Positions 6,350 through 25,753 are shown, counted from the stretch's first letter. The stretch is 47,044 nucleotides of DNA from an uncultured Candidatus Saccharibacteria bacterium (GCA_964574865.1 CAZNOT010000002.1:1-47044); one strand, 5' to 3'. A program made the numbers and translations. Notes: generated by a model from the sequence alone, not told the origin.

Positions 6350-6352
6350 CAT

Positions 6353-9177: not shown

Positions 9178-9200
9178 TTTGAGGCTAAAGAACGGGCAAC

Positions 9201-9638: not shown

Positions 9639-9655
9639 CGGACGAACAGCGAACT

Positions 9656-10717
9656 ATGGACTACCAGAAGATGCTCGACTCCCTGATCGAAACGGTCGTC
9701 AGCCGCGACGCCTCCGACCTGCACCTCTCGCAGGGTCGCCACCCGACGCTGCGCGTCATGGGCGATCTCATTCCGATTTCTACGCACCCGGTGCTCTCCA
9801 AGGAAGACCTCGACGGTCTCCTGGCCGCGATGATCGGCGCGACCCGCGTCGCCGACTTTCGCGGCAAGACGCAGTTCGACTTCGCGTACTCGTTCCGCGA
9901 TAAGTTCCGCTTCCGCGGAAACGCCTTCATTCAGCAGGGTCACGTCTCGATCGTCATGCGTCTCATCCCGCGCCAGATTCGCACGCTCGCCGAGCTCAAC
10001 GTTCCGCCGATCCTCGAGACCTTCGCCCGCAAGCAGCAGGGCTTTTTCCTCGTGGTCGGCCCGGTTGGCCAGGGCAAGACGACCACGCTCGCCGCGATGA
10101 TCGACCTCATCAACCACGAGCGTCCGGAGCACATCGTGACCATCGAGGACCCAATCGAGTACGTCTACGAGCAGGACAAAGCCATCATCGACCAGCGCGA
10201 GGTGAAGATCGACGTGCCGAGCTTCCACGAGGCGCTGACGGCCGCGTTCCGCCAGGACGTCGACGTAATCCTCGTGGGCGAGATGCGCGACCCTGACACG
10301 ATTTCCGCCGCGGTGACCGCCGCCGAGACCGGCCACCTCGTGCTCTCGACGCTCCACACCAACAACGCGTCCCAGACGGTCGATCGCATCATCGACTCCT
10401 TCCCGGCGGCGCAGCAGGACCAGATCCGCCTCCAGCTCGCGAGCTCGCTCATCGGCATCTTCTCGCAGCGCCTCGTGCCGCGCATCTCCGGCGGCCAGAT
10501 TCCGGCTTACGAGCTCCTGCTCAACAACTCGGCGGTCTCGAACCTCATCCGCGAGCGCCGCACGCACGAGATCGACACTGTCATCGAGACCGGCTCAGAG
10601 ATCGGCATGATCGACATGAACCGCTGCCTAGCCGAGCTCGTGCAGAGGGGGGAGATCACGATCGAGACCGCCTACCAGTTCACGTTGCGGCCGCAGGTGC
10701 TCGAGCGTTTCCTGTGA
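9656..10717 (+). CDS. pilT: type IV pilus retraction ATPase PilT
   Basis: 353 aa. Walker A GPVGQGKTTT, Walker B DVILVGEMRD, and the PilT-type length. Confidence 0.9.
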   Translation: MDYQKMLDSLIETVVSRDASDLHLSQGRHPTLRVMGDLIPISTHPVLSKEDLDGLLAAMIGATRVADFRGKTQFDFAYSFRDKFRFRGNAFIQQGHVSIVMRLIPRQIRTLAELNVPPILETFARKQQGFFLVVGPVGQGKTTTLAAMIDLINHERPEHIVTIEDPIEYVYEQDKAIIDQREVKIDVPSFHEALTAAFRQDVDVILVGEMRDPDTISAAVTAAETGHLVLSTLHTNNASQTVDRIIDSFPAAQQDQIRLQLASSLIGIFSQRLVPRISGGQIPAYELLLNNSAVSNLIRERRTHEIDTVIETGSEIGMIDMNRCLAELVQRGEITIETAYQFTLRPQVLERFL

Positions 10718-10737
10718 CCACGATGCGAGACTAAGCC

Positions 10738-11946: not shown

Positions 11947-12140
11947 GGCGGGAAACTCCATTCGGCGCGCAAAACGGTCTTTTGCGCCTCGGGGTACACG
12001 CGTGCACCGTCGGCTAGAAAGAACCGGTTTTTCGCACCCGGATGCCGCCCCCCGTGCCGCGGGGGGCAAAATACAGGTTCGCCCTTGATTTTTTGGGAGA
12101 GAAAGACGTCCGGAAAACTGTGCTAACCTCTGCCTCACCT

Positions 12141-13565
12141 ATGCCGGGCAAGTACCATCTGACCGTCGGCCTCGAAATTCACGCCGAGCTCAAGACGGCG
12201 ACGAAGGCGTTCGGCCGCGCGAAGAACGACCCGTTCGGCGCGGCGCTCCCGAATTCGAACGTCGACGAGATCGACCTGGGGCACCCCGGAACGCTGCCCG
12301 CGCTCAACGCCGAGGCGGTGCGCCAGGTCGTGCGCGTCGGCCTCGCGATCGGCGGCAAAATCGCCGAGTTCGCCGAGTTCGACCGCAAGCACTACTTCTA
12401 CCCGGACATCCCGAAGGGCTACCAGATCAGCCAGTACGAGCACCCGCTGGTGACGGGCGGGCAAATTGGCGCGGTCAAGATTACGCGTATCCACCTCGAG
12501 GAGGACACCGCGACCTCGAAGCACGACCGCGGCGATTTCTCGCTCGTCGATTTCAACCGCGCGGGCGTGCCGCTCATGGAGCTCGTCACGGAGGCGTGCA
12601 TTCACTCGGCGGAAGAGGCCGTCGCCTTCGCGTCCGATCTCCAGCTCCTCCTCCGCTACCTCGGCGCCTCCGAGGCGAACATGGAGCGCGGCGAGATGCG
12701 CGTCGAGGCGAACATTTCCATTTCGGATACGGCGGGGAAGCTCGGCACGAAGGTCGAGGTGAAAAACCTCAACTCGTTCCGCGCGGTTGCCGGCGCGATC
12801 GCCTACGAGGCGGCGCGCATGGAGAAACTTTTGGAATCGGGGAAGGGCGACGAAATTGTCCAGGAGACGCGCGGTTGGGACGAGGTGGGCGAGAGGACCG
12901 TGCCCCAGCGGCGCAAGGAGACCGCGGACGACTACCGCTACTTCCCGGAGCCGGATCTGCCGAAGCTGCGCCCGCACGAGCTGTTCGATCTGGGCGCGCT
13001 CCGGGCCGAGCTCCCCGAGCTGCCGTGGGCGAGGCGAGCGCGCTACCGCGCGCTCGGGCTCTCCGAGAAAGAGGCCGAGGTGCTCGTCGGCGACCTCGAT
13101 CTCGCGGTCTACTACGAGGCCGTCGCCGGCGCGCTGCCGTCCGAGAAGGCGAAGAAGCTGGCCGCGAACTACATCCTTTCCGACATCCTCGGCCTCGCGA
13201 AGAAGGCGGGCGAACCGGCGTCTAAAATCCCGGTCGCCGCGCTCGTTGAAATCATCGGGATGGTGGACTCCGCGGCCATCAACTCGCGCGTCGCCAAAGA
13301 CCTCGTCGCGTTCTATTGGGCCGACCCCGCCGCGGCCGAGCTGCCGAAGGCTAAGGTCGAGCGCGAGGGGCTCGGCATGATGGGGGAGGCCGCGCTCGCG
13401 CCGATCGTCTCGGCCGTCGTTGCCGCGCAGCCGCAGGTCGTCGCCGACTACAAAACTGGCAAGGTCGCGCTCCTCGAGTTTCTCGTGGGGCAAGCAATGA
13501 AGGAGACGAAGGGGCGCGCCGACGCGGCGGTTCTGCGCGACCTGTTCCGCGCCGCCCTCGGGTAG
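12141..13565 (+). CDS. gatB: Asp/Glu-tRNA amidotransferase subunit B
   Basis: The ORF opens at 12042, but the conserved N-terminus YHLTVGLEIHAELKT starts at ATG 12141. The GatB/YqeY tail is present. Confidence 0.9.
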   Translation: MPGKYHLTVGLEIHAELKTATKAFGRAKNDPFGAALPNSNVDEIDLGHPGTLPALNAEAVRQVVRVGLAIGGKIAEFAEFDRKHYFYPDIPKGYQISQYEHPLVTGGQIGAVKITRIHLEEDTATSKHDRGDFSLVDFNRAGVPLMELVTEACIHSAEEAVAFASDLQLLLRYLGASEANMERGEMRVEANISISDTAGKLGTKVEVKNLNSFRAVAGAIAYEAARMEKLLESGKGDEIVQETRGWDEVGERTVPQRRKETADDYRYFPEPDLPKLRPHELFDLGALRAELPELPWARRARYRALGLSEKEAEVLVGDLDLAVYYEAVAGALPSEKAKKLAANYILSDILGLAKKAGEPASKIPVAALVEIIGMVDSAAINSRVAKDLVAFYWADPAAAELPKAKVEREGLGMMGEAALAPIVSAVVAAQPQVVADYKTGKVALLEFLVGQAMKETKGRADAAVLRDLFRAALG

Positions 13566-13583: not shown

Positions 13584-13617
13584 TGAGAATTCTCACCGCC
13601 GAAATTCGGTCTTTTTT
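13584..13617 (+). terminator. weak terminator-like structures after gatB
   Basis: TGAGAATTCTCA palindrome, then a short CCGAA/TTCGG stem, then CTTTTTTG. Confidence 0.4.
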
Positions 13618-13619
13618 GT

Positions 13620-13625
13620 TAAGAT
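13620..13625 (+). promoter_or_regulatory. -10 box TAAGAT, 8 nt before ATG 13634
   Basis: Follows the gatB terminator-like T-tract. Confidence 0.5.
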
Positions 13626-13633
13626 TTCTCCGA

Positions 13634-16600
13634 ATGAGCCAGGCGTCGAAAAGACGAATCATCTTAGCGCTCACCCTCGCCGCGATCGGTTTGATCGGGC
13701 TCTTGCCTGTGGACGTTGAGGCCCGCCGTGGCTTTCCGCACTTCGTCCAGAGCGAGATTTCTGTGGGAGAAAACCTCGCGCGCATTGGCGGGGCAATCTT
13801 TGGCTCGCCCGAGCGCGGCGTCGCATCGGCCGGATCGGTCACGTCGCCCGAATGCGGCTGGTGGGACTGGCTCGTCTCTGGCTGCTCGTCCGATCCGGTC
13901 GAGCTCGTGCCCTCGGCCGCGGTCTCTGAGACCGGCGCGCCCGCGGTGAGCCGCGCCGTGGGCGGAGCCGCTCCGTCTGCCGCGCGCCCCGGCGACTACT
14001 ACGTCACCGAGAACGTCATTGAGCGCGTCGTCGTTCGCGACGAGACTGAATCTTCGGGGGCCCGCGCGCTCCTGGAGCGCCTCGGCGTCCTCGAGGCGCA
14101 GGTCGCTCGCTTCGACGGCCGCATCGACGCGATCAACGGCTACTCGCCGAGGTCGACGCGCCGCTCGCGCGCGGCCGAGCGCGAAGACACGAGCGCCTCT
14201 ATCGCCGCCGCCGTCTCGGGCGGCTCGTCCGACGCCTCGTTCGGCACGCTCTCCGTCTCCGGCGCGGCGACCTCTACCTTCGGCAACGGGCTAGACATCG
14301 CGGACGGCTGCTTTGCGATCGACGGCGTGTGCCTCGATCTCGGCGACGCCGCGGACGGAACCTTCTCGACTACTTCGGCCGCGTACTGGGAGTCGACCCA
14401 GGCGCGCTGGGCCACGACGTCATCCGACTACTGGGAGTCGACCCAGGCGCGCTGGGCCACGACGTCATCTGCGTACTGGCTCACGACGAAAACGACGGCT
14501 GACCTCGCGGAGAGCGGCAGCCTCTACTACACCGACGCGCGCGTCGCGGCCTACGTTTCCGCCTCCTCGACCATTCCGCACATCGGCGGCTCTGCCTACG
14601 GTGACGTTCTCTACTGGACTGGGACCGCGTGGTCCCAAATGGCCACCTCCACCCTCGGCATTGACGGTTCGAAGTGGGACGATGCGACGGGCGGCATCAA
14701 CTACTCGGGCGGGAACGTCGCAATCGGTAATTCAGCACCTTCAGAATTACTGACTCTTGGTTCAGCAACAGAAACTTCGGGGAACAGAAAGGCACTGAGA
14801 TTTAATGCTGGCGGCTACGCAGCTCCAGGGGTATTCAATACAAACTCTAATGGCGATAAAATTATTTTTTATCAGGGATCTGACTTTGACGGACGATTCG
14901 GCGCTTCTTCGGGCGGTGAGATTTGGTTGAAGGCGCTTTCTACTAATACCAGCAATACTGGATTTGGATCCCTTAGTTTTTACACTGGCCAAGGAGTTAC
15001 TCCGTCTCCGAATCTCAGAATGCATCTAGGTGCGACTGGCGGAGTCGCTCTCGGCGGCACGATTACTAGTGCAACAAACTACACAGGAGCTACTTTGGTG
15101 CTTAGTACAGGGGGAAATGTGGGGATAGGAGCAAGCAGCCCAGTAACAGGTTTGGAAGTAGCTAATAATGGGGTAAATATATCGGGGAATTTCAATTACA
15201 ACATGTATGTTCATAATGCTGGAGGCAACAAGGGTTTTGCATTTGGATACGATACTAGTTCGCAAACAGGTATCATTGCTCCATCGGGCGGTACTGCTGA
15301 CCTTGCGTTTTGGACGCCAAATAGCAGTGTTTGGAGTGAAAAAATACGGTTTACCGCTGCGGGTAATGTGGGAATAGGTAGCACTACCCCAACAAATAAA
15401 TTAGTGGTCCAGGCGACAAACGGCGATGTAAGTATTGGAACATTCCAATCTTCTTATCCCGGTATTGCCATCAATAACACCAATGCCGGCTCATCGTACG
15501 GAGGATTCATGCGATGGCAGAAAAATGGAACAAACCAATGGGGATACGGAATGGATTACGTGGGTAACGGAGGTCAAGATTTCTGGCTCTATAACTACGC
15601 TTCCTCTAAAGACGCACTTTATTTCTCTTCGGCAAATGGGTACACGACCGTTGCCGGGCATTCAAACGCCGCCTCACCTCTTGCGGTCAACGGTGGCGCT
15701 GCGATCGGCGCAGGGTACGTTACAACCGCCGCGCCGTCTAACGGTTTGTTGGTGCAGGGGAGTGTGGGCGTCGGCACGTCGACCCCCTGGAAAGCCTTTT
15801 CGGTCACGGGCGCCGTTGCCTTCGACGGGCTCTCCTCGATGGGCGCTTCGGACCAGTACGTCTGTATCAACCCAACGACGAAAGAGGTTACGTTCGGCGC
15901 CGTTTGCACCGCGTCCTCCGAGCGCTTCAAGCACGACATTGAGGTCCTCGGGGATTCGGACGGGCTCGCGCTCGTGCGCCAGCTCCGCCCGGTATCGTTC
16001 GCCTACAACGAGACCGGCCAGACGCGCCTCGGCTTCATCGCCGAGGACATCGACCGCATCGACCCGCGCCTCGTGTTCTACGAGTCTGACGGTACGACTC
16101 CCAAAGGCGTGCTCTACCAAGACTTCACACCCATCCTCGCGAAATCTGTTCAGGAGCTCGACGTGCGCATCGAAGGCTTGGCCGAAATGGAGCCGTGGTC
16201 AGGTGACGCCGAGCCAGACTCGTTTGCCGCGCGCGTCGTGGCGCGGATCGCCGCGTGGCTCGGCGACGCCGGGAACGGCCTCGCCGCAGTCTTCGCCGGG
16301 AAGGTTCAAACAAACGAGCTCTGCCTCGCGGGCGCGAACGGCTCGACCACCTGCATCACCCGAGATCAGCTCGAGGAGCTGCTAGGCACAGACGTGCCGC
16401 TCCCGGTGCCGGGCAATGGCCCCGACGACGGCCCGGCTCCTTCTGCGGCCGAACTTCACGGCGCGGTCGGCGAGACCGCGGCGGACTTCGAGGCTGGCGG
16501 CGCTGGCGCACCCACTGCCGACGGGTCGGACGGTGTTCCTGTCGACGTTGCGGCGGTCGGCGAATCGGCTGACGGCGCCCCAGACAGTCCCACGGCCGAG

Positions 16601-16765
16601 GGAGGCGAAAATTCTGATGAACCTACCGGCGATACCTCCGACGTTTCGGCGCCGAGCGAAAGCTCTTCCGAAAATTCGGGCGCCCATTCCTCGGGCGAAT
16701 CGTCAGAAAGTCTGTCCGAATCTTCCGGCGGAGGCGACTCATCGGACGTCGCGTCGGGCGAGTAG
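13634..16765 (+). CDS. giant secreted tail-fibre-like protein with C-terminal Peptidase_S74-type intramolecular chaperone domain and acidic Ser-rich tail
   Basis: The ORF opens at TTG 13616; ATG 13634 lies 8 nt after TAAGAT. N-terminal signal/anchor RRIILALTLAAIGLIGLLP. Repeated NVGIG..P...L.V fibre motifs. SSERFKHDIEVL...LRPVSFAYN...GFIAEDI...VLYQDF fits the endosialidase-chaperone (S74) pattern. Confidence 0.8.
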   Translation: MSQASKRRIILALTLAAIGLIGLLPVDVEARRGFPHFVQSEISVGENLARIGGAIFGSPERGVASAGSVTSPECGWWDWLVSGCSSDPVELVPSAAVSETGAPAVSRAVGGAAPSAARPGDYYVTENVIERVVVRDETESSGARALLERLGVLEAQVARFDGRIDAINGYSPRSTRRSRAAEREDTSASIAAAVSGGSSDASFGTLSVSGAATSTFGNGLDIADGCFAIDGVCLDLGDAADGTFSTTSAAYWESTQARWATTSSDYWESTQARWATTSSAYWLTTKTTADLAESGSLYYTDARVAAYVSASSTIPHIGGSAYGDVLYWTGTAWSQMATSTLGIDGSKWDDATGGINYSGGNVAIGNSAPSELLTLGSATETSGNRKALRFNAGGYAAPGVFNTNSNGDKIIFYQGSDFDGRFGASSGGEIWLKALSTNTSNTGFGSLSFYTGQGVTPSPNLRMHLGATGGVALGGTITSATNYTGATLVLSTGGNVGIGASSPVTGLEVANNGVNISGNFNYNMYVHNAGGNKGFAFGYDTSSQTGIIAPSGGTADLAFWTPNSSVWSEKIRFTAAGNVGIGSTTPTNKLVVQATNGDVSIGTFQSSYPGIAINNTNAGSSYGGFMRWQKNGTNQWGYGMDYVGNGGQDFWLYNYASSKDALYFSSANGYTTVAGHSNAASPLAVNGGAAIGAGYVTTAAPSNGLLVQGSVGVGTSTPWKAFSVTGAVAFDGLSSMGASDQYVCINPTTKEVTFGAVCTASSERFKHDIEVLGDSDGLALVRQLRPVSFAYNETGQTRLGFIAEDIDRIDPRLVFYESDGTTPKGVLYQDFTPILAKSVQELDVRIEGLAEMEPWSGDAEPDSFAARVVARIAAWLGDAGNGLAAVFAGKVQTNELCLAGANGSTTCITRDQLEELLGTDVPLPVPGNGPDDGPAPSAAELHGAVGETAADFEAGGAGAPTADGSDGVPVDVAAVGESADGAPDSPTAEGGENSDEPTGDTSDVSAPSESSSENSGAHSSGESSESLSESSGGGDSSDVASGE
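14384..14479 (+). repeat. 45-bp in-frame tandem duplication (2 copies plus the start of a third)
   Basis: TACTGGGAGTCGACCCAGGCGCGCTGGGCCACGACGTCATC(C/T)G.. repeats at 14384 and 14429, and TACTGG recurs at 14474. It encodes YWESTQARWATTSS(D/A). Confidence 0.9.
14725..15660 (+). other. low-GC cassette inside the giant gene (compositional island, in frame)
   Basis: Hand counts of G+C per 60 nt: 21 at 14821-14880 and 27 at 15121-15180. Flanking lines give 39 (14281-14340) and 40 (16021-16080). Boundaries are approximate. Confidence 0.8.
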
Positions 16766-16821: not shown

Positions 16822-17460
16822 ATGAGAAACAAACAGTACGTTCTGCCGCTCGCGCTCTCGGCGCTCGTCCTGCTATCGCCTGTCGCGTACCCGCTCGTGG
16901 AGGCGGCGCAGGCGCAGGCGGTGACCGACGAGGTCATCGTAACCCTCAATGTCGACGCGGGAATTTCCATCACCAGCCCGGCTGACGCTTCGATGAGCCA
17001 GAACCTTGGCGTCTCGGCCAACACAGCGGTTGCGTCGACCGTTTGGAACGTTAAGACGAACAACGCGGCCGGCTACACCATCGCCGTCAAGGCAACCACC
17101 TCTCCCGCGCTCCGCAATGCTACGAACAACATTGCCGACTACACGCCGGCCGTCGCTGCCACGCCTGAGACGTGGGACGTTTCCAACACCGCCGAGTTCG
17201 GATTCTCGGCTTTCGGGACCGACATCTCTACCGGCACCTGGGGCACCGACTCCGACTGCATCGCCGGCGCAAACGTGCCGAGCGCCGGTCTCAAGTATCG
17301 CGATTTTGACACCAGCGACATTCAGATTGGTTCGCGTTCCGCCACTACCACCACTACCGGAATCGATACAACCGTCTGCTACGCGGTCGAGCAGGACGGC
17401 TTCTACGTCCCCTCTGGCACCTACGTCGCCACGGTTGTCGCCACGGCCGCGACGCAGTAG
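16822..17460 (+). CDS. secreted beta-rich surface subunit A (WxL/spore-coat-U-like pattern, paralog of 18438..19166)
   Basis: 212 aa. Signal peptide ...LVEAAQAQA|V. Motif block STVWNVKTNNAAGYTIAVKATTSPAL, a Cys pair, and the terminal strand SGTYVATVVATAATQ. Confidence 0.6.
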   Translation: MRNKQYVLPLALSALVLLSPVAYPLVEAAQAQAVTDEVIVTLNVDAGISITSPADASMSQNLGVSANTAVASTVWNVKTNNAAGYTIAVKATTSPALRNATNNIADYTPAVAATPETWDVSNTAEFGFSAFGTDISTGTWGTDSDCIAGANVPSAGLKYRDFDTSDIQIGSRSATTTTTGIDTTVCYAVEQDGFYVPSGTYVATVVATAATQ

Positions 17461-17463
17461 TAT
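17458..17463 (+). promoter_or_regulatory. -10-like TAGTAT, 6 nt before ATG 17470
   Basis: Overlaps the upstream TAG stop. It could equally be coincidental. Confidence 0.3.
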
Positions 17464-17469
17464 CCGGCA

Positions 17470-18438
17470 ATGCCTAGGGTTCGAACGGGGAAGCTCCGGC
17501 GAGTAATCGCGGCAGCAACGTTCCTTTTCGCTGCCTTTTCCCCGAGCCTCGCGTCCGCGTTCTCCGTCTCCCAGGTCACCGTCGAGCCCGTCGGCGATTT
17601 TGTTGTCGAGCCCGCGAAAATCGAGCTCACGCTCGAGCCGGGCGAGACGGTCACCAAGACGGTCACGGTGACCAGTCGCATCTCGGGCGAGACCGATTTC
17701 TCCATCTCTCTCGAAGACTTCCTCGGCACGGATAACGGCAGCTACGCGGTCCGGCTGCTCGGCGACCAGGTGAGCCCCTACTCATTCCGGTCGGCCATCC
17801 GCCCCGACGCGAGCAGCTTCTCGCTCGGCTTCGGCGAGCGCGCGGTCGTCTCGATCGAGATCGCCGCGCCGGCTGCCGCCGCGCCCGGCGGCTACTACAC
17901 GTCGGTGGTCGTCGCCGGCGACCCGCGCGGCGACACGCTCGACGGCGGCGGCGCGAAGGTGGTGTCGCGCGTCGCGCAGCTCCTCTTCGTGCGGGTCGAC
18001 GGCGAGGTCGAGGAGAGCGGCGCGCTGCTCGACTTCCGCCTCTCGCCGCCCGGCTTCTTCCGGAGCGGCGGCCCGTTCCAGTTCGAGGCGCTCTTCCAGA
18101 ACACCGGCAACGTGCACCTCGCGCCCTACGGCAGCGTGACCGTTCGCAATCTGATCGGCTCGACCGTGGCCGAGATTCCCGTCGACGCGTACTACGCGAT
18201 GCCTAAATCGATGCGCTACCGCACCGTCGAGTGGCCGGGCAAGCCGATGATGCTCGGCTACTACACCGCCGAAATTGAGCTCTACAAGGGTTACGGCGAC
18301 GAGGGCGATACCTCGAAGGCGACGGTGTCCTTCCTGGTAATCCCGTGGCTCTACCTCGGAATCGCCGCCGTGGCGCTGCTCCTCTCGTGGCTCGCCACGC
18401 GCTACGTCCGACGTAACTTCGAGCTGAAGCGACGCTGA
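17470..18438 (+). CDS. membrane-anchored two-beta-sandwich protein, DUF916/DUF3324-like
   Basis: 322 aa with a signal peptide. FSVSQVTVEPVGDFVVEPAKIELTLEPGETVTKTVTV fits the DUF916-like pattern. The second domain FQNTGNVHLAPYGSVTVRN...YYTAEIELYKG fits the DUF3324-like pattern. C-terminal TM helix plus an RRNFELKRR tail. Confidence 0.6.
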   Translation: MPRVRTGKLRRVIAAATFLFAAFSPSLASAFSVSQVTVEPVGDFVVEPAKIELTLEPGETVTKTVTVTSRISGETDFSISLEDFLGTDNGSYAVRLLGDQVSPYSFRSAIRPDASSFSLGFGERAVVSIEIAAPAAAAPGGYYTSVVVAGDPRGDTLDGGGAKVVSRVAQLLFVRVDGEVEESGALLDFRLSPPGFFRSGGPFQFEALFQNTGNVHLAPYGSVTVRNLIGSTVAEIPVDAYYAMPKSMRYRTVEWPGKPMMLGYYTAEIELYKGYGDEGDTSKATVSFLVIPWLYLGIAAVALLLSWLATRYVRRNFELKRR

Positions 18439-19166
18439 TGCGGGCACGGTTCGCGGCAATCGTCTCCCTCGCGCTCGCCCTCCCCGTGGGGGCGCTCGCC
18501 GCCGCGCGAACCGGTACGGCCTACCAGATTCTCTACGACAGCGTGAACTCGGGAGGCCTCCTCTCGACCAGTACCTCGTACGGGCTCGAGGACACGATCG
18601 GCGAGGCGGCGGTCGGCACCTCGAGCTCCGCGACGTACCAGGTCTCGGCCGGCTACCAGCGGGAGCTCACCGGCGGCTCGCTCTCCATTTCCGCGCCGGG
18701 TAACGGGGCCATCCCGAACATCTCGGGGCTCACGGGCGGCACGGAGGCGACGACCGTCTCCTGGACGGTGACGTCGAGCGGTGGCTACCAGCTCGCGGCT
18801 AAGGCGTCCGCGTCGCCCGCGCTCACGGGTCCCGGCGGCGCGTTCTTCTCGGACTACCAGACCGGCACGCCCGATTTCGTTTTCACGTACGGGACGTCGG
18901 ACGCGCTCTTCGGGTACTCGCCGGAGGGCAGCCACGTGGTGCAGCGGTTCAAGGACAACGGCTCGGCGTGCAACGTGAACAGCGGCGAGACGTCGGACCG
19001 CTGCTACGTTGGCTTCACCACGTCTGACGTGGCGGTGGCGTCGAGCGGCTCGGGTACGGGTGGCACGGCGACGACGCTGCGGCTGCGCGCGGGCATCGGT
19101 TCAGCTAGAATCCAGGACAGTGGCAGCTACCAGGCGACAATCACGGTCACGGCTGTTCCGCTCTAG
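18438..19166 (+). CDS. secreted beta-rich surface subunit C (paralog of 16822..17460 with an extra N-terminal SxY..G repeat region)
   Basis: 242 aa; its start overlaps the previous stop (TGATG). Signal peptide present. TVSWTVTSSGGYQLAAKASASPAL, the Cys pair SACNV..DRCYVG, and the terminal strand SGSYQATITVTAVPL. Confidence 0.6.
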   Translation: MRARFAAIVSLALALPVGALAAARTGTAYQILYDSVNSGGLLSTSTSYGLEDTIGEAAVGTSSSATYQVSAGYQRELTGGSLSISAPGNGAIPNISGLTGGTEATTVSWTVTSSGGYQLAAKASASPALTGPGGAFFSDYQTGTPDFVFTYGTSDALFGYSPEGSHVVQRFKDNGSACNVNSGETSDRCYVGFTTSDVAVASSGSGTGGTATTLRLRAGIGSARIQDSGSYQATITVTAVPL

Positions 19167-19887
19167 CGCGGCGGCCGTCATCCTTGCGCTCGCGCCGCTC
19201 GTCGTCGGCGCCGCGGGAGACGGCGTGAACGTCAGCGTCTCGGCCGAATTCTGCAACCTCGACCTGGTGTGCGATTCGATCGAGAACCACATCGTGTGCC
19301 CGAGCGATTGCGAGGCGCCGCCCGAGCCGGTGGCCGAACCCGAGCGCGACGAGGAGGGCAGGCGACGTTCCTCGAGCGGCCGGAGCGGCGGCGGGGGCGG
19401 TGGGGGAGACGTCGTGGCGCCTGACGTCGTCTTCGCTCCCGAGCAGGGGAGCGCCTCGAGCGTCTGGTCTAGCCCGGAAGACGCGGCGTTCTCTGGGCGC
19501 TTTTCCGTCTCGATCAACGGTCGCGGCGCGGTCGAGTTCTCGTGGCCGCAGCTCGGCGGCAGCGTGCGGGTGCTGCGCGCCGAGGGCGAGTCATTTCCAA
19601 CCTCGCCCTACGACGGCGGGCTGGTGGTCTACGAGGGCGACGCCAAAGGTTTCGAGGATCGAACGGTAGAGCCGAACCAAACGTACCGCTACGCGGTTTT
19701 CTACGATTCCGGCGGCGGCACCTACGGCGTTCGCAACCTCGTCGTCGCCGAGACCGGCTCGGCGTTCTCGGTCATCTCTCTCTTCGACCGCGCGGCCGAG
19801 CTGCCGCCGGAAGCGTACGCCGGCGCGCTCGCGCTCGCGGGGTTCGGGTTCGTTCCGCTCGTGCGCATCGCGCTCGCGCGGCTCTAG
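19120..19887 (+). CDS. Cys-knot / Gly-run / FN3-like protein with C-terminal hydrophobic anchor
   Basis: The ORF opens at 19009 and overlaps the upstream gene. GTG 19120 gives a plausible signal peptide (RRQSRSRLFRSSAAAVILALAPLVVGAAG). FSWPQLGGSVRVLRAEG...YRYAVF is FN3-like. The start is uncertain. Confidence 0.5.
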   Translation: MAATRRQSRSRLFRSSAAAVILALAPLVVGAAGDGVNVSVSAEFCNLDLVCDSIENHIVCPSDCEAPPEPVAEPERDEEGRRRSSSGRSGGGGGGGDVVAPDVVFAPEQGSASSVWSSPEDAAFSGRFSVSINGRGAVEFSWPQLGGSVRVLRAEGESFPTSPYDGGLVVYEGDAKGFEDRTVEPNQTYRYAVFYDSGGGTYGVRNLVVAETGSAFSVISLFDRAAELPPEAYAGALALAGFGFVPLVRIALARL

Positions 19888-19925: not shown

Positions 19926-19949
19926 GCCACGGTACAATTGTACCGTGGC
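19926..19949. promoter_or_regulatory. 24-bp perfect palindrome (candidate operator) spanning the -10 box and start codon of the 1261-aa gene
   Basis: GCCACGGTACAA|TTGTACCGTGGC, verified base by base. It contains TACAAT (19933..19938) and GTG 19945. Confidence 0.6.
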
Positions 19950-22900
19950 GTATTTTGGGTTTTTTCTGAGAAGGCGCGCGCGCGTTCTCGTCGCGGCGTG
20001 CCTCGCCGCGCTCTCTTTTGTCTCGCCCGCTCGCGCGGCGTTCTCTCAGGCGATTAGCTACCAAGGCAAGCTCGCCGACTCGAGCGGCATCGCGGTCGCC
20101 GACGGCGACTACAACATGGAGTTCAAGCTCTACGACGCGGTTTCGAACGGCAACCTCCTGTGGACCGAGACGCGGAGCGGCGCGAACAAGGTGACCGTGA
20201 CCGACGGTCTTTTCAGCGTGCAACTCGGCTCGATCGCCGCGCTCTCGAGCGTCAATTTCAATCAGCCGTTGTGGCTCTCGGTGAACATTGGCGGCACCGG
20301 CACCCCGAGCTGGGACGGCGAGATGACGCCGAGGAAGCCTATGGGTTCGGTGCCCGCCGCGTTCGTGGCCGGCGTGGCCTACGGCCTCGACGCGACCTAC
20401 GCCACGTCGACCTACGCCACATCGACGCGCATCTACGCGGGAGCCTCGCTCAACGTCGCCACCACATCGTCCGCCGCCGCGCTCGCCGTGCAGGGGAGCG
20501 CGCTCCTCTCGGGCAACCTCGGTCTCGCGAACCTGACCGCGACCGGCACGGCGACCGTCGGCGCGCTCTCGGTCGGCGCGCTCTCGGGGCCGCTGCAGGC
20601 GATTGCCGGCGTCGTATCGGCTACGTCCACGATGTCCGTCGGCTACGGCGGCACCGGCCTCTCGACGGCACCGACCTACGGGCAGGTGCTCGTGGGTAAC
20701 GCCTCGGGAGGCTACACGCTCACCGCGACCTCCTCCCTCGGCATCGGCGGCGGGAGCGTGACGGCAGACTCGCTCAACTTCACGGACATGAGCGACACGA
20801 TGGCGCTCGACGCCGGCACGTCGATCGGCTTCGGCGCGAGCAGCTACGGTCTCACGTTCACGAACGACGGCAGCGGCAACGAGACGCACAACTTGTCTTC
20901 GACGGGCGACTTCGTGATCCAGGACAACGGCTCGACGGTGTTCTCGGTGGACGATACGGGGAAGATTACCGCGGACAACCACCTGTTCATTGGAGCGCAG
21001 GCCGACTCCGCGTCGACCGGCGATGCCGCGTACACGATCTTGAACTCGGCTGCGGGCACCTTCGGCGCGCAGACCGCGCGCGACAAAATCTCGTCGATCG
21101 CCGTGTACGAGGGCAAGCTCTTCGTCGCCGTCGCCGAGACGGACGCAGCTGGCATCTACCGCTGGGATGGGGGCACGACCTGGACTTTGGTGACCTCGAG
21201 CACGCTGGGGCGCGTCATCTCGGGCGACGCGACGGACGCTGACGCGTTCGTGATGACCGTTTTCAACGGCGAGCTGTGGGTCGGCAGCCAGAACGGCGCC
21301 GCGACGGCTGGCGTGTACAAGAGTTCGACCGTCGATACGGCGTCCGCGGGCGACAACTTCACGTTGGTCAACTCTGCGCGCGGCACGATCAACGCCGCTG
21401 CGCAGACCGGCATTTCGGACATGGTTGTCTACAACGGCCAGCTCATCGTCGCGACGCAGAAGGCGAACGCGGCCGAAATTGCCCGCTACGAGGGCGGCAC
21501 GACGTTCACCCGCATCAACGCGACCGTCGGTAAATCAGCGGCCGAGACCACCGCCGACAAGGACGCGTTCGTCCTAGCCATCTGCAACAACGTCCTGTGG
21601 TCGGGGTCGATTTCCGGGGCGGCGACCGCGATCGTGGCGAGCTACCAAGGTAACGGGACCACCTGGATCAACACCACGGTCACGGCGACGGGCGGCAGTT
21701 TTGGCGCGGAGACGTCCATATCTGACATCGACAGCCTAGCCTGCTACAACGGCTCGCTGTACATGACGGCCTCGAAGACAGCCGGCAACGCCGCGGCCGT
21801 CTACTACTACAAGGCGTCAGCGGCGCCGGTCGCGAACGTCGCGGCCAACTGGGTGCGCGTGAACCCGGCGGTCGGCAAAATGCTGGCGGCCGACTCGGCG
21901 GTCATCGACAAGTTCATCCTGAAGACGTACCGCGGTCGCCTCTACGCTGGCTCGCAGACTGCGACCGGCGACGGTGCGGGCGCGCTCTTCGAATACTCGG
22001 GCGTGCCGCTCGCGGACTGGCCGCTCATGACGACCGGCGCGCGCGGCACGTTCGGGTCCCAGACTGCCGTCGACAGTATTTCTGCCCTCCAGGACTTCAA
22101 CGGCACTCTCTACGTCGGTACCGACGATCTCACCGCGGGCGTCGGCTCGGTCTACACGTGGGGCAAACTCTTCCAAAACTCGTTCGGGCTGAAGTTCGAG
22201 GCGACCGACGGCGCGTACGGCACGATGAGCTTCGTGGGGAACGTGCAGACTGGCGATTCTGGCCGTGGCGGCAGCTTCCTCTTGAGTAACTCAATCATGA
22301 TGACCTCTGGCGCTTACGACGTCGCCGAGGACTACCCGACGCGCGACGAGGCGCTCGCGCCGATGGACCTCGTGAGCCTCGACGCCCTCGAGCAGGGCAT
22401 GGTCCGCCGCTCTTCTGGGCGAGGGGACAAGGGCGTCATTGGCATCTACTCCGAGGCCCCAGCCCTACGGCTGGCGCAGCCCGGGGAGGCAATCGATGGC
22501 ACTCGGGCGATTCCGGTCGCTCTCGCCGGCCGCGTGCCGGTGCGCGTCACGCTCGACGGCGGGCCGATCGCGATCGGCGACTACCTCACCGCGTCGCCTG
22601 AACCTGGCGCGGCGATGCGCGCGTCGCGGCCAGGGCGCGTCGTCGGCCGCGCGATTTCCGGCTACAGTGGCGCCGAGGGTGAAGAGGCGAAGGTGACCGT
22701 CTTCGTCGGCACCGAGACAATCGGCTGGGACGAGATTGCTATCGCCGAGGTGCAGTCGGCCGAGGCCGCGGCCGTCGATTCCGTCTCGCGGTTCTTCGCC
22801 GACGTATCGACCGCGACCGAAGACCTCGCGCTCGCCTCGATCGCCGGGGCGGACGACCTGAGTCAAGTCATCGCCGAGAAGCTCGTCGCCGTGACCGCGA

Positions 22901-23730
22901 GCGTAAAAAAGATGTTCGTGGAGGCGCTGACCGTGCTGCCTGGCGGTAGCCTCGCGGTGCCGAGTGGCGAGAATCAGATTTCTGGCAGCGCCGTGCTGCC
23001 CGCGGGTGCGATCGGGCTCGACGTGGGCAACGAGGCCGTGCGCCTCACCTCGAAGGTTTTTGTGACGCCGATTTCCTCGCTCTCCGCGCCGCTCGTGGTG
23101 ACGCAGAAGACCGATGGTATCGGCTTCCGCGTAGAAATTGCGACGCCGCAGCCGGCGGATGTTTCGTTCGATTGGCTCATCGTGCAGACGTACCGTCCGG
23201 CGGGCGGAGCCGAAACCGTCGCCGCGCCGATCTTCGCGAGCACGTCGATCGCGTCGGAAGAGGGCGTCACCGTGCTCGACGCCGGCGAGGACGTGGTCGT
23301 CGCGCCCGCGGATGAGCCTGCTGGCGAGCCCGCCAATGACGCGCCGGCCACGGGCGGCGCGGCCGAAGATTCTGCCGGAGGGAGTACGGGCGACTCCGGA
23401 TCGGGCGCGACAGAACCTGAGCCTGAATCTGATTCCGCCGGCTCTGGCGAGGAAGCTGGTTCCGGAGATTCTGCCGGTGACAGCTCCGGCGGAGAGGCCG
23501 ACGCCGGATCGGCTGCCGCGTCGGACGACGGATCTTCGTCCGGTGACGGTGGCGGCGACGATGGCTCTTCTTCGGGCGATTCGGGCGGGAGTGATTCCGG
23601 CGGTAGCTCGGCGGGAGATTCCGGCGGCGGGGGAGATTCTTCCTCCGGCGATTCGGGCGGCGGATCATCGGGCGACTCCGGCGGCGGCGACTCCGGCGGC
23701 GGCGATTCCGGATCGTCGTCCGGTGAGTAG
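19945..23730 (+). CDS. giant secreted protein: N-terminal fibre module, 7-bladed beta-propeller-like repeats, C-terminal beta domains, Asp/Ser/Gly tail
   Basis: 1261 aa with a GTG start. Signal peptide ...SPARA|AF. Seven spaced motifs: YEGKLFVAV, FNGELWVGS, YNGQLIVAT, CNNVLWSGS, YNGSLYMTA, YRGRLYAGS, FNGTLYVGT. The tail is (SGDSGGG)n. Confidence 0.75.
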   Translation: MAYFGFFLRRRARVLVAACLAALSFVSPARAAFSQAISYQGKLADSSGIAVADGDYNMEFKLYDAVSNGNLLWTETRSGANKVTVTDGLFSVQLGSIAALSSVNFNQPLWLSVNIGGTGTPSWDGEMTPRKPMGSVPAAFVAGVAYGLDATYATSTYATSTRIYAGASLNVATTSSAAALAVQGSALLSGNLGLANLTATGTATVGALSVGALSGPLQAIAGVVSATSTMSVGYGGTGLSTAPTYGQVLVGNASGGYTLTATSSLGIGGGSVTADSLNFTDMSDTMALDAGTSIGFGASSYGLTFTNDGSGNETHNLSSTGDFVIQDNGSTVFSVDDTGKITADNHLFIGAQADSASTGDAAYTILNSAAGTFGAQTARDKISSIAVYEGKLFVAVAETDAAGIYRWDGGTTWTLVTSSTLGRVISGDATDADAFVMTVFNGELWVGSQNGAATAGVYKSSTVDTASAGDNFTLVNSARGTINAAAQTGISDMVVYNGQLIVATQKANAAEIARYEGGTTFTRINATVGKSAAETTADKDAFVLAICNNVLWSGSISGAATAIVASYQGNGTTWINTTVTATGGSFGAETSISDIDSLACYNGSLYMTASKTAGNAAAVYYYKASAAPVANVAANWVRVNPAVGKMLAADSAVIDKFILKTYRGRLYAGSQTATGDGAGALFEYSGVPLADWPLMTTGARGTFGSQTAVDSISALQDFNGTLYVGTDDLTAGVGSVYTWGKLFQNSFGLKFEATDGAYGTMSFVGNVQTGDSGRGGSFLLSNSIMMTSGAYDVAEDYPTRDEALAPMDLVSLDALEQGMVRRSSGRGDKGVIGIYSEAPALRLAQPGEAIDGTRAIPVALAGRVPVRVTLDGGPIAIGDYLTASPEPGAAMRASRPGRVVGRAISGYSGAEGEEAKVTVFVGTETIGWDEIAIAEVQSAEAAAVDSVSRFFADVSTATEDLALASIAGADDLSQVIAEKLVAVTASVKKMFVEALTVLPGGSLAVPSGENQISGSAVLPAGAIGLDVGNEAVRLTSKVFVTPISSLSAPLVVTQKTDGIGFRVEIATPQPADVSFDWLIVQTYRPAGGAETVAAPIFASTSIASEEGVTVLDAGEDVVVAPADEPAGEPANDAPATGGAAEDSAGGSTGDSGSGATEPEPESDSAGSGEEAGSGDSAGDSSGGEADAGSAAASDDGSSSGDGGGDDGSSSGDSGGSDSGGSSAGDSGGGGDSSSGDSGGGSSGDSGGGDSGGGDSGSSSGE
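23560..23727 (+). repeat. coding low-complexity repeat (GGC GGC GA(C/T) TCC GG-type units)
   Basis: Imperfect reiteration encoding SGDSGGSDSGGSSAGDSGGGGDSSSGDSGGGSSGDSGGGDSGGGDSGSSSGE. Confidence 0.8.
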
Positions 23731-23788: not shown

Positions 23789-25753
23789 ATGAACCGGGTG
23801 ACAGCATCGGCGGCGACGATAAAAACGCGACTCAAGTCGCGGCTGCTCCGCGCGTCTGCCGCGCTCGCCGCGCTCGCGGTCGGGTGGTGGATTCTCGTTG
23901 CCGCGGGGGTCGGCGAACTGCCCGGAAATTTTCGCTACAGCGCGACCACCGTCTCCTACGATGACTGGTTCGACGAGGCGAGCGGCACGTTCGCCGGCCC
24001 AGTTAAGTCGAGCGGAGAGCTGGTCTTTGAGCGGGTGAGTTCCGGCGGTTCGGGCGCCGGGCAGGGCGTCCCGGTCCGCGCCGTTTTCCGGCTCCTCAGC
24101 GCCGACACGAAGCAGCCGTCGCTCGTCATTGAGCGACGCTACGCCATCGACCCTGAGACGTGGGGGCACGTCTCGTCCGTCGAGGCCGACCGCAACCGCG
24201 ACGGGCACCTCTTCGCGCCGCCGGGCATCCGGGCGGGGGAGAGCTTCACCTACTGGCACCCGAACTACGACGCGCCCGCGCGGATGGACTTCGCGGGCAC
24301 GGAGAACGTTCTGGGCCTCGAGACCTACCGCTACGTCGCGGCCTTCCCCGACGGGAAGGTCGATCAGACCGCGGCTCTCGGGCACGTTTCCGGCGTCGGA
24401 AAAACTCGGGGCGTCGTGCTCGAGCCGCACCTCGAAATTTGGATTGAGCCCCAGACCGGCTGGCTCATCAAGTACGAGGATCACGCCCTCGCGTCGTTCT
24501 ACGATCTCGAGACCGGCGAGGTGCAGTCGCCGTGGAACCGCTTCCGGAACCGCTACACCGCGACCGCGGTCGAGGGCCACGTAGAGGCAGCTAGGCTGGA
24601 GGCGCTCAGGCGCGCCGCGCTCTGCTGGGGCATCCCGCTCGCGCTCCTCCTCGCCGCGCTCCTCCTCGCCGCGCTCCACGTCGTTTCGCGCCGCCCCGAT
24701 CGTCGGGCGCTGGTGGCTCGCTGGCTCCCGCGGGGCGTGGTCGCGGTTATCCTCGGCGGCACCGTCTTTTCCTGGATCGCCCTCCAGGGTTCGCTCGACC
24801 GGCGCTCTCAGATTCACCTTGCGGCTGACGCCGCGCGGATCTCGGATGCTCTCGCGAACCGAATGTCCGTCTACTCGAACACGCTGCTCTCGGCGCGCGG
24901 ACTGCTCTACTCGTCCGAGGAGGTGACCCGCGAGGAGTGGCACGCCTTCACGGAGAGCCTGAACATTCGGCGCAGCTACCCGGGGCTGCAGGCGATCAAC
25001 TGCCTGCAAATTGTCTCGGGGAGCCGCCTGGGCGCGTTCGAGGCGTCCGTGCGCGCCGGGGGTGTTCCCGATTACTCCGTGTCCCCGGCTAAACCCGCGC
25101 GAGAAATTTACGCGCCGATTGTCTTCACCGCACCGGCGGACGAGCGGAACCTCCGGGGTTTGGGGTACGACGGCCTCTCCGATCCCGTCCGGCGCGAGTT
25201 CCTCGAGCGCGCGCGGGACACCGACGCTGTGGCGCTCTCGGCCAAGATCCAGCTCGTCACGGAGAACGGGCGCGACGTGCAGCCCGGGTTCGCCGCGTGC
25301 CTTCCCACGTATGAAGCCGGCGACACGTCGACGGTCGAGGGTCGCCGTGACGCCCTCGCGGGCTACGTCTGCGCGATATTCCGCGGCCGCAACTTCGGCG
25401 AGGACGTCATCTCCGCCGGCGACTACGAGCTCCGGTTCGAAATTTTTGACGGCGACAACGCGACGTCTGAAACATCTAAAATCTTCGATAGCGAGGACGG
25501 CGCCCCGCTCGCCTCGGGTGTCTCGATCACCCAGACGGTCGATGTCTTCGGTCGCCCGTGGACGCTACGGTTTTCGGGGCCGTCCGGGTACGGGCTCTCG
25601 CTGTTCGAGCGGGTCGCGCCGTCGGGGCTGCTCGGCTTCGGCCTCTTCTCGGGGTTCTTGGTGTACGGGGCGCTGACCGCGCTGTCGGGCTTCCGACCCA
25701 GGCGAGAGGAGGACTTTTTGGACGCACCGGCGCTCCTCGCCCCCGGAGACTGA
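23789..25753 (+). CDS. four-TM membrane protein with DUF3068(PorA)-like and CHASE extracytoplasmic domains, no cytoplasmic output domain
   Basis: 654 aa. TM helices near residues 20-45, 275-297, 310-330 and 612-632. The CHASE pattern is EEWHAFTESLNIRRSYPGLQAI...IYAPIVFTAPADERNLRGLGYDGLSDPVRREFLERARDT. The C-terminal tail is only about 22 aa. Confidence 0.6.
   Translation: MNRVTASAATIKTRLKSRLLRASAALAALAVGWWILVAAGVGELPGNFRYSATTVSYDDWFDEASGTFAGPVKSSGELVFERVSSGGSGAGQGVPVRAVFRLLSADTKQPSLVIERRYAIDPETWGHVSSVEADRNRDGHLFAPPGIRAGESFTYWHPNYDAPARMDFAGTENVLGLETYRYVAAFPDGKVDQTAALGHVSGVGKTRGVVLEPHLEIWIEPQTGWLIKYEDHALASFYDLETGEVQSPWNRFRNRYTATAVEGHVEAARLEALRRAALCWGIPLALLLAALLLAALHVVSRRPDRRALVARWLPRGVVAVILGGTVFSWIALQGSLDRRSQIHLAADAARISDALANRMSVYSNTLLSARGLLYSSEEVTREEWHAFTESLNIRRSYPGLQAINCLQIVSGSRLGAFEASVRAGGVPDYSVSPAKPAREIYAPIVFTAPADERNLRGLGYDGLSDPVRREFLERARDTDAVALSAKIQLVTENGRDVQPGFAACLPTYEAGDTSTVEGRRDALAGYVCAIFRGRNFGEDVISAGDYELRFEIFDGDNATSETSKIFDSEDGAPLASGVSITQTVDVFGRPWTLRFSGPSGYGLSLFERVAPSGLLGFGLFSGFLVYGALTALSGFRPRREEDFLDAPALLAPGD

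Follow-up and report, generated by a model that had tools for sequence, protein, structure and literature searches.

A Widespread Five-Gene Operon of Paceibacteria-Type Patescibacteria: A Probable Compact Variant of the Usher-less Pam Pilus System with a WxLIP/DUF916-Type Chaperone Candidate

Introduction

Patescibacteria are obligate episymbionts, and the manner in which they attach to their hosts is mostly unknown. The closest described system to the locus considered here is the Pam pilus of the Candidate Phyla Radiation (CPR). Cryo-electron microscopy of the filaments of Ca. Mycosynbacter amalyticus has been reported in a preprint (doi 10.64898/2026.03.03.709456), where the two-domain pilins PamA and PamB polymerize by donor-strand exchange. 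A further pilin of the system is PamE. The other components were proposed there by AlphaFold: a tip subunit, PamT, with a truncated Ig domain only; the PapD/FimC-like chaperones PamC/D with a C-terminal transmembrane (TM) helix; and PamR, an RbmA-like anchor of the fibronectin type III class (FnIII, or FN3). The proposed assembly route has no usher. A tail-fiber-like gene and ATP synthase genes are conserved neighbors. The preprint highlights the Saccharimonadia and Microgenomatia, and WxL, DUF916, and the Paceibacteria go unmentioned. In this report, we analyze a 47,044-nt stretch of patescibacterial DNA (GCA_964574865.1, CAZNOT010000002.1; hereafter the window), which carries four closely packed genes, A–D, at 16822–19887, a unit that we extend to 23730 with gene E. 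We consider it probable that these genes form a five-gene, Sec-dependent, usher-less surface-assembly operon of a Paceibacteria-type Patescibacterium, a compact variant of the Pam system with a chaperone from the WxLIP/DUF916 superfamily.

A second related system is encoded by the Csc clusters of the Firmicutes, which are composed of CscA (the WxLIP protein, DUF916-DUF3324-TM), CscB (a small WxL protein), CscC (a large WxL adhesin), and CscD (an LPxTG peptide); PDB entries 9i1y and 9i25 belong to this system. The CscC “large WxL” proteins carry ConA-like lectin domains. In published AlphaFold2 (AF2) work, one hairpin of WxLIP was predicted to become the strand that completes the WxL sandwich. 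A sequence-only reading of the same DNA had compared genes A–D with WxL-DUF916 loci and had proposed an uncharacterized surface-fiber assembly system. A system of this kind has since been described as the CPR Pam pilus.

Results

Gene C and the Pam Tip Subunit

The product of gene C consists of a signal peptide, a conserved N-terminal region of ~55 residues, and a domain at residues 77–242 that is of the same type as that of A (the A/C-type domain). C was matched by the NCBIfam model NF058579 (CPR-type pilus protein PamT) with E = 2.2e-6 over residues 5–241 of 242 and model positions 8–239 of 241, and thus aligns to PamT over the whole model. The same model matches 52 of the 56 members of the C family, the best at 2.6e-17. 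All of these scores fall well short of the equivalog cutoff of 240 bits. With its 27 bits, C is therefore considered to be homologous to PamT, which forms the tip of the CPR Pam pilus, but not an equivalog of it.

The N-terminal region contains three S-x-x-Y repeats (S.NY.IQ.DS.N.GG, STSTSY.LEDT.GE, and S.S..Y...AGYQ), and when it was sought in the remaining proteins of 90 loci, it was found to be confined to C-type proteins. In the AF2 model of C, the predicted local distance difference test score (pLDDT) was greater than 90 for residues 77–242 and less than 50 for the highly conserved N-terminal region. The PDB entries that match the fold of C are mostly chaperone-usher pilin domains (the PapG pilin domain, FimF/G, PapA, PapE, CS17, CfaB, and CsuA/B), and TasA is also found among them.

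By these weak fold matches, the C domain is most like the pilin domains of the chaperone-usher pili (Pap/Fim/Caf/Csu/CFA-I), and the tip/rod/terminator logic of those pili would fit C/A/D. The locus differs from these pili in that there is no outer membrane, no usher, and a chaperone that is tethered to the membrane, and in that its proteins have no PapD or fimbrial Pfam membership. No usher-like gene was found in A–E or among the window open reading frames (ORFs) scanned, and the related loci contain only A–E. The absence of an usher, a sortase, and an LPXTG motif had been noted in the sequence-only reading. The lack of an usher and a sortase is a trait in common with the Pam pilus, in which, as here, all parts are Sec-exported.

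A Bridging Operon with Pam-Type Gene Content

One locus, L089, was found through a relative of B (P0047; 30% identity to B, phmmer E 1e-23) and contains, in order, the genes for ATP synthase gamma, beta, and epsilon, a PamT-like protein, two pilins, a B-type chaperone, a PKD-like protein, and a giant protein. The PamT-like protein (245 aa) has the S-x-x-Y region and is matched by the C-family hidden Markov model (HMM) at 3e-14. The two pilins are two-domain paralogues of 400 and 372 aa, and their C-terminal domain matches the domain of the PamT-like protein with E 3e-17. The B-type chaperone is recognized by the B HMM at 4e-88, the PKD-like (Ig/PKD) protein is TM-anchored, and the giant protein of 2472 aa has an N-terminal domain as in E. 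Since this layout is the neighborhood described in the Pam preprint, Pam-like operons have B-type proteins as their chaperones.

The invariant core of the two operon types is a PamT-like subunit, a B chaperone, a TM-anchored Ig protein, and a giant fiber, and in the window type the single-domain A stands in place of the two-domain pilins. The families of A and C gave no match to the L089 two-domain pilin with hhalign, so the link of A and C to the C-terminal domains of the Pam pilins is only transitive, through the PamT-like protein of L089. The D HMM did not match the anchored protein of L089, and the anchor is therefore not sequence-conserved between the two operon types. The sequence-only reading of a secreted, anchored module in a CPR genome, thought to work by edge-strand complementation with a two-Ig, chaperone-like partner, was sound at its core, given the PamT homologue C and the B-type chaperone of L089, and was mistaken or unproven where A and C were taken for analogues of WxL proteins.

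Further likenesses to the Pam pilus are the paired cysteines of the subunits and the linked giant tail-fiber-like gene. The window differs from the Pam operon in having one chaperone instead of two, in its A-B-C-D order, in a single-domain A of 212 aa where PamA/B are major pilins built as N-terminal domain, linker, and C-terminal domain, and in its lineage, Paceibacteria/Parcubacteria, which is not named in the preprint. No ATP synthase genes were found among the window ORFs scanned (37–47 kb was outside the scan). In another CPR locus (L090, 3380–9137), four paralogous genes for proteins of ~310–365 aa occur together with two genes for B-like proteins of 350 and 299 aa. The pam operon of M. 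amalyticus likewise has two chaperones, and L090 may represent a third layout of the system.

Gene B as a Candidate Chaperone

In the AF2 model of B (pLDDT 92.9), an N-terminal signal helix precedes two beta-sandwich domains, which are followed by a TM helix (residues 293–316) and a basic tail. Using Foldseek, the best PDB matches were found to be two WxLIP structures of E. faecium, 9i25_C (1e-12; described as “bound to long WxL”) and 9i1y (1.9e-12). The next matches were RbmA and the chaperones CfaA, CsuC, Caf1M, CupB2, FimC, and DraB of the chaperone-usher systems, at 1e-8 to 1e-6. The structural alignment of B to WxLIP has 272 columns and covers both domains.

The sequence of B from the window alone gave E = 0.15 with PF06030 (DUF916; 12.6 bits vs a cutoff of 27.3 bits) and E = 0.3 with EfmWxLIP1. 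A profile built from CPR members only matched EfmWxLIP1 with E = 6.7e-9 over the N-terminal domain. PF06030 matches 18 of 48 members of the B family, the best at 2e-8, and the tail of the list of B homologues consists of actinobacterial DUF916 proteins. Because of the CPR-only profile match, the 18 PF06030 matches, and the fold match, we regard B as truly belonging to the WxLIP/DUF916 superfamily, although as a distant relative. The DUF3324 Pfam model gave zero matches in the 48 family members, and the second domain is assigned on its structural match to WxLIP, the sole support for it. The arrangement proposed earlier for B (DUF916, DUF3324, a C-terminal TM helix, and a basic tail) was thus recovered for DUF916, by family profile and fold, and for the helix and tail, but the DUF3324 sequence match was not.

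B has the feature that characterizes the PamC/PamD type, a two-domain PapD/FimC-like fold kept by a C-terminal TM helix, and from its sequence and model it is a candidate for a PapD-like, membrane-anchored chaperone. A long hairpin in B (residues 140–152/166–176) has a low-confidence tip and aligns with the matching part of WxLIP. By analogy, the hairpin insertion predicted for WxLIP would follow the same principle as donor-strand complementation by a pilus chaperone, and the hairpin of B may be the inserting element.

Relatives of B were found in at least 262 GTDB species representatives in a B-profile scan of genome contigs. In enrichments of Paceibacteria that parasitize archaea, the top-expressed secreted unknowns include “peptidoglycan-binding” and Ig-like domain proteins (PMC10936435); some of these could be proteins of the B family (WxLIP_PGBD).

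Gene A, Its Kinship with C, and the WxL Clusters

The product of gene A consists of a signal peptide, a short N-terminal strand, and a beta-sandwich domain of ~165 aa that it has in common with C. From the family statistics, the consensus of the mature N-terminal strand is D-x-V-[VI]-V-T-L-N-V. A and C align by BLASTP with E = 7e-7 and 28% identity across 173 aa, and their counterparts in locus L001 do so with E = 2.5e-20. The two family profiles match with a probability of 99.9% and E = 9.8e-37 over 165 columns (A 48–212, C 82–242). Both families conserve a pair of cysteines and an invariant C-terminal strand (Y..T.T.TA). The likeness of A and C that the sequence-only reading had seen in their signal peptides, colinear blocks, cysteine pair, and terminal strand is far above chance, and the two proteins are paralogues.

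The 272 close homologues of A are all from Patescibacteria, and the A profile detects 696 representatives at E ≤ 1e-3, and 486 at 1e-10, among 1.84 billion clusters. Tandem copies of A (AABCD or AAABCD) are present in 10 of 80 loci. We propose that A is a minimal pilin, with a linker strand and a domain like the C-terminal domain of the Pam pilins. The leader of the A family (16822–16920 in the window) has a near-invariant Glu, mostly followed by Pro, ~8 residues ahead of the A-x-A at which cleavage is predicted. A Glu at this position is unusual in a Sec signal peptide and might indicate special processing.

A and C were also considered as WxL proteins. No match to WxL (PF13731) or to the spore-coat-U family (SCPU) was found in the window proteins, or in 52 members of the A family and 56 of the C family, at E ≤ 1. 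Profiles of A and C searched against all PDB sequences, including the chains of 9i25, returned nothing at E ≤ 10. The WxL chain of 9i25 is not in the top 50 fold matches of C. Local resemblances are present: the A/C motifs G-Y-x-L and Y-x-A-T-I-T-[VA]-T-A recall the WxL motif, with A-G-Y-x-L against A-G-W-x-L, together with a Y..T.T.T C-terminal strand. We treat this resemblance as a lead and not as a test. The dual Trp-x-Leu motif is absent, and the lack of the Trp, pointed out before, was confirmed. The family of A was compared by hhalign with the secreted neighbor of an actinobacterial DUF916 gene, with a resulting probability of 0.4%; the WxL-like C-terminal motif of that neighbor is no evidence of homology. 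The comparison with a WxL-DUF916 locus is therefore upheld for B and for the cluster architecture (CscA–D), and not for A and C as WxL domains.

A Csc-like cluster outside the Firmicutes is found in Microbacterium (CP151634, L005 7298–9352). There, a DUF916 gene with PF06030 above the cutoff is flanked by the genes for a secreted protein of 207 aa and an LPDTG-anchored peptide of 107 aa, and the cluster adjoins a RicinB/GH43 giant.

These results bear on a different reading of the operon, in which B permanently binds A and C as small CscB-like partners at the membrane or cell wall, D is a CscD-like anchor, and the complex serves as an adhesin docking platform that does not polymerize. B is a homologue of WxLIP in both sequence and structure, and the composition of the unit mirrors cscA–D: a DUF916 protein with a TM helix (320–380 aa), two small paralogous secreted subunits (190–280 aa), and an anchored protein of small size. 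The subunit domain is also found at the C-terminus of large adhesins that have ConA/LamG-like domains, a counterpart to the large adhesins of the Csc clusters. The AF2-predicted insertion of a WxLIP strand into WxL, together with the crystal entry of WxLIP bound to a long WxL (9i25), would suit such a complex, as would the lack of two-domain Pam pilins in the window. However, none of the sequence tests for WxL was passed by A or C, their hairpin reads G-Y-x-L, and A shows no relation to the neighbor of the actinobacterial DUF916 gene. A component of the Pam pilus is homologous to C, and A has a donor-type N-terminal strand and is often duplicated, as pilin genes are. D is held by a TM segment and not by an LPXTG motif. 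The unit also differs from the Csc clusters in that E employs an N-terminal domain where CscC has a C-terminal WxL, and in that the host is a CPR bacterium. We consider a nonfilamentous complex of this type rather unlikely, at well under even odds, and prefer a compact Pam variant.

Adhesin Variants of the A/C-Type Domain

Among the A-profile matches, the A/C-type domain is found at the extreme C-terminus of larger proteins of 387–1566 aa; the others are A-type proteins of ~215 aa and C-type proteins of ~250 aa. The C position of the A-B-C-D-E operon in locus L091 is occupied by a 613-aa C-type protein (P0382) with DUF2341 and Laminin_G_3 (a precomputed Pfam assignment) inserted between S-x-x-Y repeats 2 and 3. 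A search of the PDB sequences with this LamG-bearing protein found no match. Locus L092 (747–15182) has three tandem adhesins of 1674, 1566, and 1447 aa with DUF2341, Laminin_G_3, and cadherin-like domains, each of which terminates in an A/C-type domain; the three are presumably an arsenal that uses the same assembly system. Another protein with Laminin_G_3 and an A/C-type domain (P0308) is encoded elsewhere (GCA_035708305.1, contig DASSSU010000020). This contig has the accession prefix DASSSU01 in common with locus L048, an ABCD-type operon that was scored as ABD.

In the tip adhesins FimH and PapG, a lectin module comes first and a pilin-type domain forms the C-terminus. The same order of a lectin module and a C-terminal A/C-type domain, as in FimH/PapG and CscC, supports C as the distal subunit that bears the adhesin, and the domain as a module for attachment that accepts a strand. 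Two database proteins (P0393, 546 aa; P0399, 533 aa) are in-frame fusions of a full B, TM helix included, with a full C. These ORFs may be real fusions or a read-through of the B/C overlap, and either way they tie B to C.

The Anchored Protein D

Proteins of the D family consist of a signal peptide, an N-terminal strand ([DN]-[SG]-I-x-V-x-L-x-V), a four-cysteine motif, a low-complexity linker that is Gly-rich in the window, one or two FN3-like domains, often a further domain, and, at the C-terminus, a TM segment followed by a basic tail. The four-cysteine motif is C-N-x-N-x-x-C-E-x(3-4)-E-x(3)-C-P-x-D-C (in short form, C..C..CP.DC). In the FN3-like block, W142, R150, R153, Y171-E172-G173, Y191, and F194 are invariant or nearly so. 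Most relatives of D are 430–520 aa in length, with an extra FN3 and a further domain, and the window D and its closest relatives represent a short form of 255–270 aa. The Pfam FN3 match is weak (E = 0.0096, in a D homologue), as is that to purple-acid-phosphatase-N. The cysteine motif, Gly run, FN3-like domain, and hydrophobic anchor that had been claimed for D are present and family-conserved.

D follows C in ~78 loci. No LPxTG motif was found in D, whose tail is hydrophobic and TM-like. The mature N-termini of A and D have a common hydrophobic register. D combines a TM anchor and FN3-type sequence with an additional strand at its N-terminus, the architecture described for PamR, and by this analogy we propose that it may be a PamR-like membrane anchor or terminator.

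The Fiber Gene E and Conservation of the Unit

Gene E codes for a protein with a conserved N-terminal domain of ~140–190 aa, a variable body, and an acidic Ser/Gly tail. A giant ORF (≥600 aa) follows D in 34 of the 38 loci that extend at least 3 kb beyond D. All 34 giants carry the E-type N-terminal domain with 45–63% identity to that of the window, so that this domain is better conserved than D (~20–30% identity to the window D). The same domain heads the giant genes of the Pam-like locus L089 and of L091. Since a giant protein with this domain follows D in 34 of 38 loci, the functional unit is taken as A-B-C-D-E with its right border at 23730. The four-gene unit of the sequence-only reading had left out the giant fiber gene directly downstream.

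E may be compared with the mosaic adhesive trimer (MAT) fibers of Bdellovibrio, for which the surface partner of the N-terminal domain is unknown (PMC10769870). Residues 23–97 of E match positions 4–75 of 162 of the model NF053851 (Bdello_MAT_N) with E = 2.8e-5 and 24 bits, below the cutoff of 60 bits. The likeness to MAT fibers thus consists of a weakly MAT_N-like, invariant N-terminal domain with a variable body and, upstream of the unit, a fiber with an S74 chaperone, as in the S74-type MATs. Genes A–D are proposed to fill the role of this surface partner. In contrast to the MAT fibers, the trimerization and surface location of E are putative, and no homologues of A–D are known beside Bdellovibrio MAT genes. 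We propose that E is the displayed adhesin.

The gene order was surveyed in the best 80 of the 262 species with a B relative, and these 80 are all metagenome-assembled genomes (MAGs) of Patescibacteria; the pattern counts also include the window and L001–L006. The 80 loci are from Paceibacteria, Parcubacteria, Nomura-, Taylor-, and Yonathbacteria, and Minisyncoccia. HMM annotation gave the orders ABCD (64), AABCD (9), AAABCD (1), and ABCDA (1), and the A-B-C-D order is thus present in about 75 of 80 loci. The remaining loci are mostly cut contigs, and three have a C-type gene instead of A. The genes beyond the unit vary between loci. The survey of gene neighborhoods that had been suggested with the first description of the module thus found the same order in most loci, mostly with a giant fiber gene next to it where the contig was long enough. 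The titles of L035, L054, L068, and many of L008–L086 (Burkholderiales, archaeon, Bdellovibrionales, Saccharibacteria) clash with their Paceibacteria-type gene content; these are probably mis-binned or auto-labeled MAGs, and a taxonomy of the family that is based on record titles is therefore unreliable.

The conservation of the unit bears on whether A–D could be mechanistically unrelated secreted proteins (S-layer, cell-wall structural, or substrate-binding) that are merely co-located, with generic Ig-like folds and no strand complementation. Ig-like sandwiches are common, the Pfam matches of the window proteins are all below threshold, and the Foldseek scores of C are weak. Against this stand an order that is fixed in about 75 of 80 loci at the species level, where the genes overlap or lie close together, the specific homologies to PamT and WxLIP, the fused B and C ORFs, and a unit that stays intact while its surroundings change. 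We regard such mere co-location as improbable.

The tail-fiber-like protein encoded upstream of A carries the intramolecular chaperone Peptidase_S74 (PF13884, E = 3.7e-9). Its N-terminus resembles that of 1 of the 34 downstream giants, and an upstream giant is present in only a minority of loci. Two flanking giants of tail-fiber-like type, one with the Peptidase_S74 chaperone and the other with a MAT_N-like N-terminus, might suggest a phage-derived cassette for tail-fiber assembly and host recognition. The surroundings contain no further phage genes, the neighbors being type IV pilus genes, GatB, and genes of glycolysis and the pentose-phosphate pathway. The unit lies on the chromosome and was found in 262 species representatives, and all of its products have Sec signals, two with membrane anchors. 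A prophage origin is very improbable, the least probable of the explanations considered here.

Locus Layout and Neighboring Features

The coordinates of the unit and its flanking features are given in Table 1. All four ORFs of the sequence-only reading were found where it had placed them. Signal peptides were assigned by eye and from the N-terminal helices of the AF2 models.

Table 1. Genes and Features of the A–E Unit and Its Upstream Flank
Feature	Coordinates	Strand	Size	Remarks
tail-fiber-like protein	13616..16765	+	1049 aa	Peptidase_S74; upstream context, not a conserved part of the unit
gene A	16822..17460	+	212 aa	ORF call
gene B	17470..18438	+	322 aa	ORF call
gene C	18438..19166	+	242 aa	ORF call
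gene D	19120..19887	+	255 aa	from GTG 19120; start revised from longest ORF
hairpin	19926..19949	+	10-bp stem	perfect stem followed by a T-rich tract; between D and E
gene E	19945..23730	+	1261 aa	giant secreted fiber protein, fifth member of the unit

The tight packing of the genes was borne out at all three junctions. A and B are separated by 9 nt (TAG at 17458–17460 and ATG at 17470), B and C overlap by 1 nt at 18438 in the sequence ctGATGcgg (the TGATG overlap noted before), and a 47-nt overlap joins C and D. The longest ORF of D begins at TTG 19009, which adds an Arg-rich leader that is not present in the homologues. The only in-frame starts ahead of the hydrophobic segment are TTG 19009 and GTG 19120. 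Because the homologues align only from the hydrophobic segment onward, GTG 19120 is most plausibly the start of D, which would account for the overlap with C; the protein then begins MAATRRQSRSRLFRSSAAAVILALAPLVVGAAG/DGVNVSV.

The hairpin GCCACGGTACAATTGTACCGTGGC (19926–19949) holds the GTG start of E in its 3' arm. It is possible that this element is a terminator or attenuator inside the operon, or a mask for the start codon of E. A scan for sigma-70 promoters gave zero sites. The G+C content of the window is 64–70%, and the numerous antisense ORFs are therefore considered artefacts of composition. A segment at 14600–15800, inside the upstream fiber gene (13616–16765), has a G+C content of 47–53% against about 66% elsewhere, which suggests a recently imported part of a mosaic fiber. 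Both giants have long acidic Ser/Gly/Asp/Glu tails (16400–16765 and 23300–23730) that end in the same tripeptide, SGE.

Directly past E, at 23789–25753, lies a gene for a 654-aa protein with a PorA/DUF3068-like region at its N-terminus (PF11271, 7.8e-14) and a CHASE sensor (3.4e-47), with no recognized output domain. A type IV pilus cluster at 4380–11946 encodes PilM, a PilO-like protein, PilB-type and PilT-type ATPases, and PilC, and GatB is encoded at 12042–13565. Two different filament systems thus adjoin in this genome; their adjacency is not kept in the relatives.

Discussion

Proposed Assembly Pathway

The pathway that we propose begins with the export of all five products by Sec. B, held in the membrane by its C-terminal helix, would bind A and C just after their export and fill their incomplete sandwich with a beta-strand or hairpin of its own beside the conserved C-terminal strand, in the manner of PapD/FimC, PamC/D, and WxLIP. 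The PamT-like C would be the distal, acceptor-only subunit, and its S-x-x-Y region would carry or dock the adhesin. Here the adhesin would probably dock through the N-terminal domain of E, and in other lineages a lectin module is inserted into C itself. A, with a donor-like N-terminal strand ahead of its domain, would then join behind C by donor-strand exchange, in one or many copies. Finally, D would terminate the chain by donating a similar N-terminal strand, and its TM anchor would tie the chain to the membrane. The scheme builds on the observed homologies (C to PamT, B to WxLIP, and A to C), domain architectures, fold classes, and very strong synteny with E, and its inferred parts are strand complementation itself, the roles of A, C, and D, a possible polymerization of A into a long filament, and a physical link of E to the chain.

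This reading is favored because C is a homologue of PamT and locus L089 holds the Pam neighborhood together with a B-type chaperone. It is also favored because B is akin first to WxLIP and then to the chaperones of the chaperone-usher systems, with a TM helix as in PamC/D; because the fold matches of the C domain are mostly pilins and the conserved N-terminus of C is not foldable alone; because the N-termini of A and D are in the same register and the A/C-type domain terminates large adhesins; and because the gene order, including E, is fixed while the outside context varies.

Several observations weigh against it. When every window ORF of 60 aa or more was scanned with HMMs, A and C were the only matches and no two-domain PamA/B pilins were found, so a long filament is unproven. 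In fold, C matches pilins weakly (best E 3.9e-3, none below 1e-3, TM-score ≤0.51), and an open groove and strand insertion in A and C are conjectural. The NCBIfam Pam models matched neither the B family nor the D family, and the model NF058581 (CPR_Pam_pilin_C) gave a weak, marginal match in 2 of 52 members of the A family. The likeness of the A and D strands is that of a short beta-strand pattern, possibly due to chance. E has no A/C-type domain. In the preprint (doi 10.64898/2026.03.03.709456), PamT has no donor strand, and there is no word on a link to the fiber.

Implications

Neither the link of the chaperone to WxLIP/DUF916 by sequence nor a giant fiber with an invariant N-terminal domain as a conserved fifth gene was found in the literature searched. 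A more far-reaching interpretation, which we put forward tentatively and would not ourselves expect to hold in full, is that A–D form a socket on which giant MAT-like trimeric fibers are mounted, and that the Pam system, the Paceibacteria module, and the WxL-Csc clusters are branches of one ancient monoderm system. The three S-x-x-Y repeats of C would then dock the N-terminal domain of the fiber, one per protomer, atop a short stalk of A anchored by D. The core of the ancient system would be a membrane-tethered, WxLIP-type chaperone that completes incomplete beta-sandwiches by strand insertion without an usher. Such a scheme would provide a mechanism for the WxL clusters and an anchor for the MAT-type fibers.

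On the preferred reading, the locus is a compact and very widespread Paceibacteria-type form of the Pam system. If this is true, the assembly logic of the Pam type reaches the largest class of the CPR, the Paceibacteria/Parcubacteria, with a minimal set of chaperone, pilin, tip, and anchor that is open to reconstitution. A CPR system would be tied by sequence homology to the enigmatic WxL/DUF916 clusters of lactobacilli, enterococci, and Listeria. It would also supply a testable anchor for giant tail-fiber-like adhesins, for which the same question arises with the MAT fibers of Bdellovibrio.

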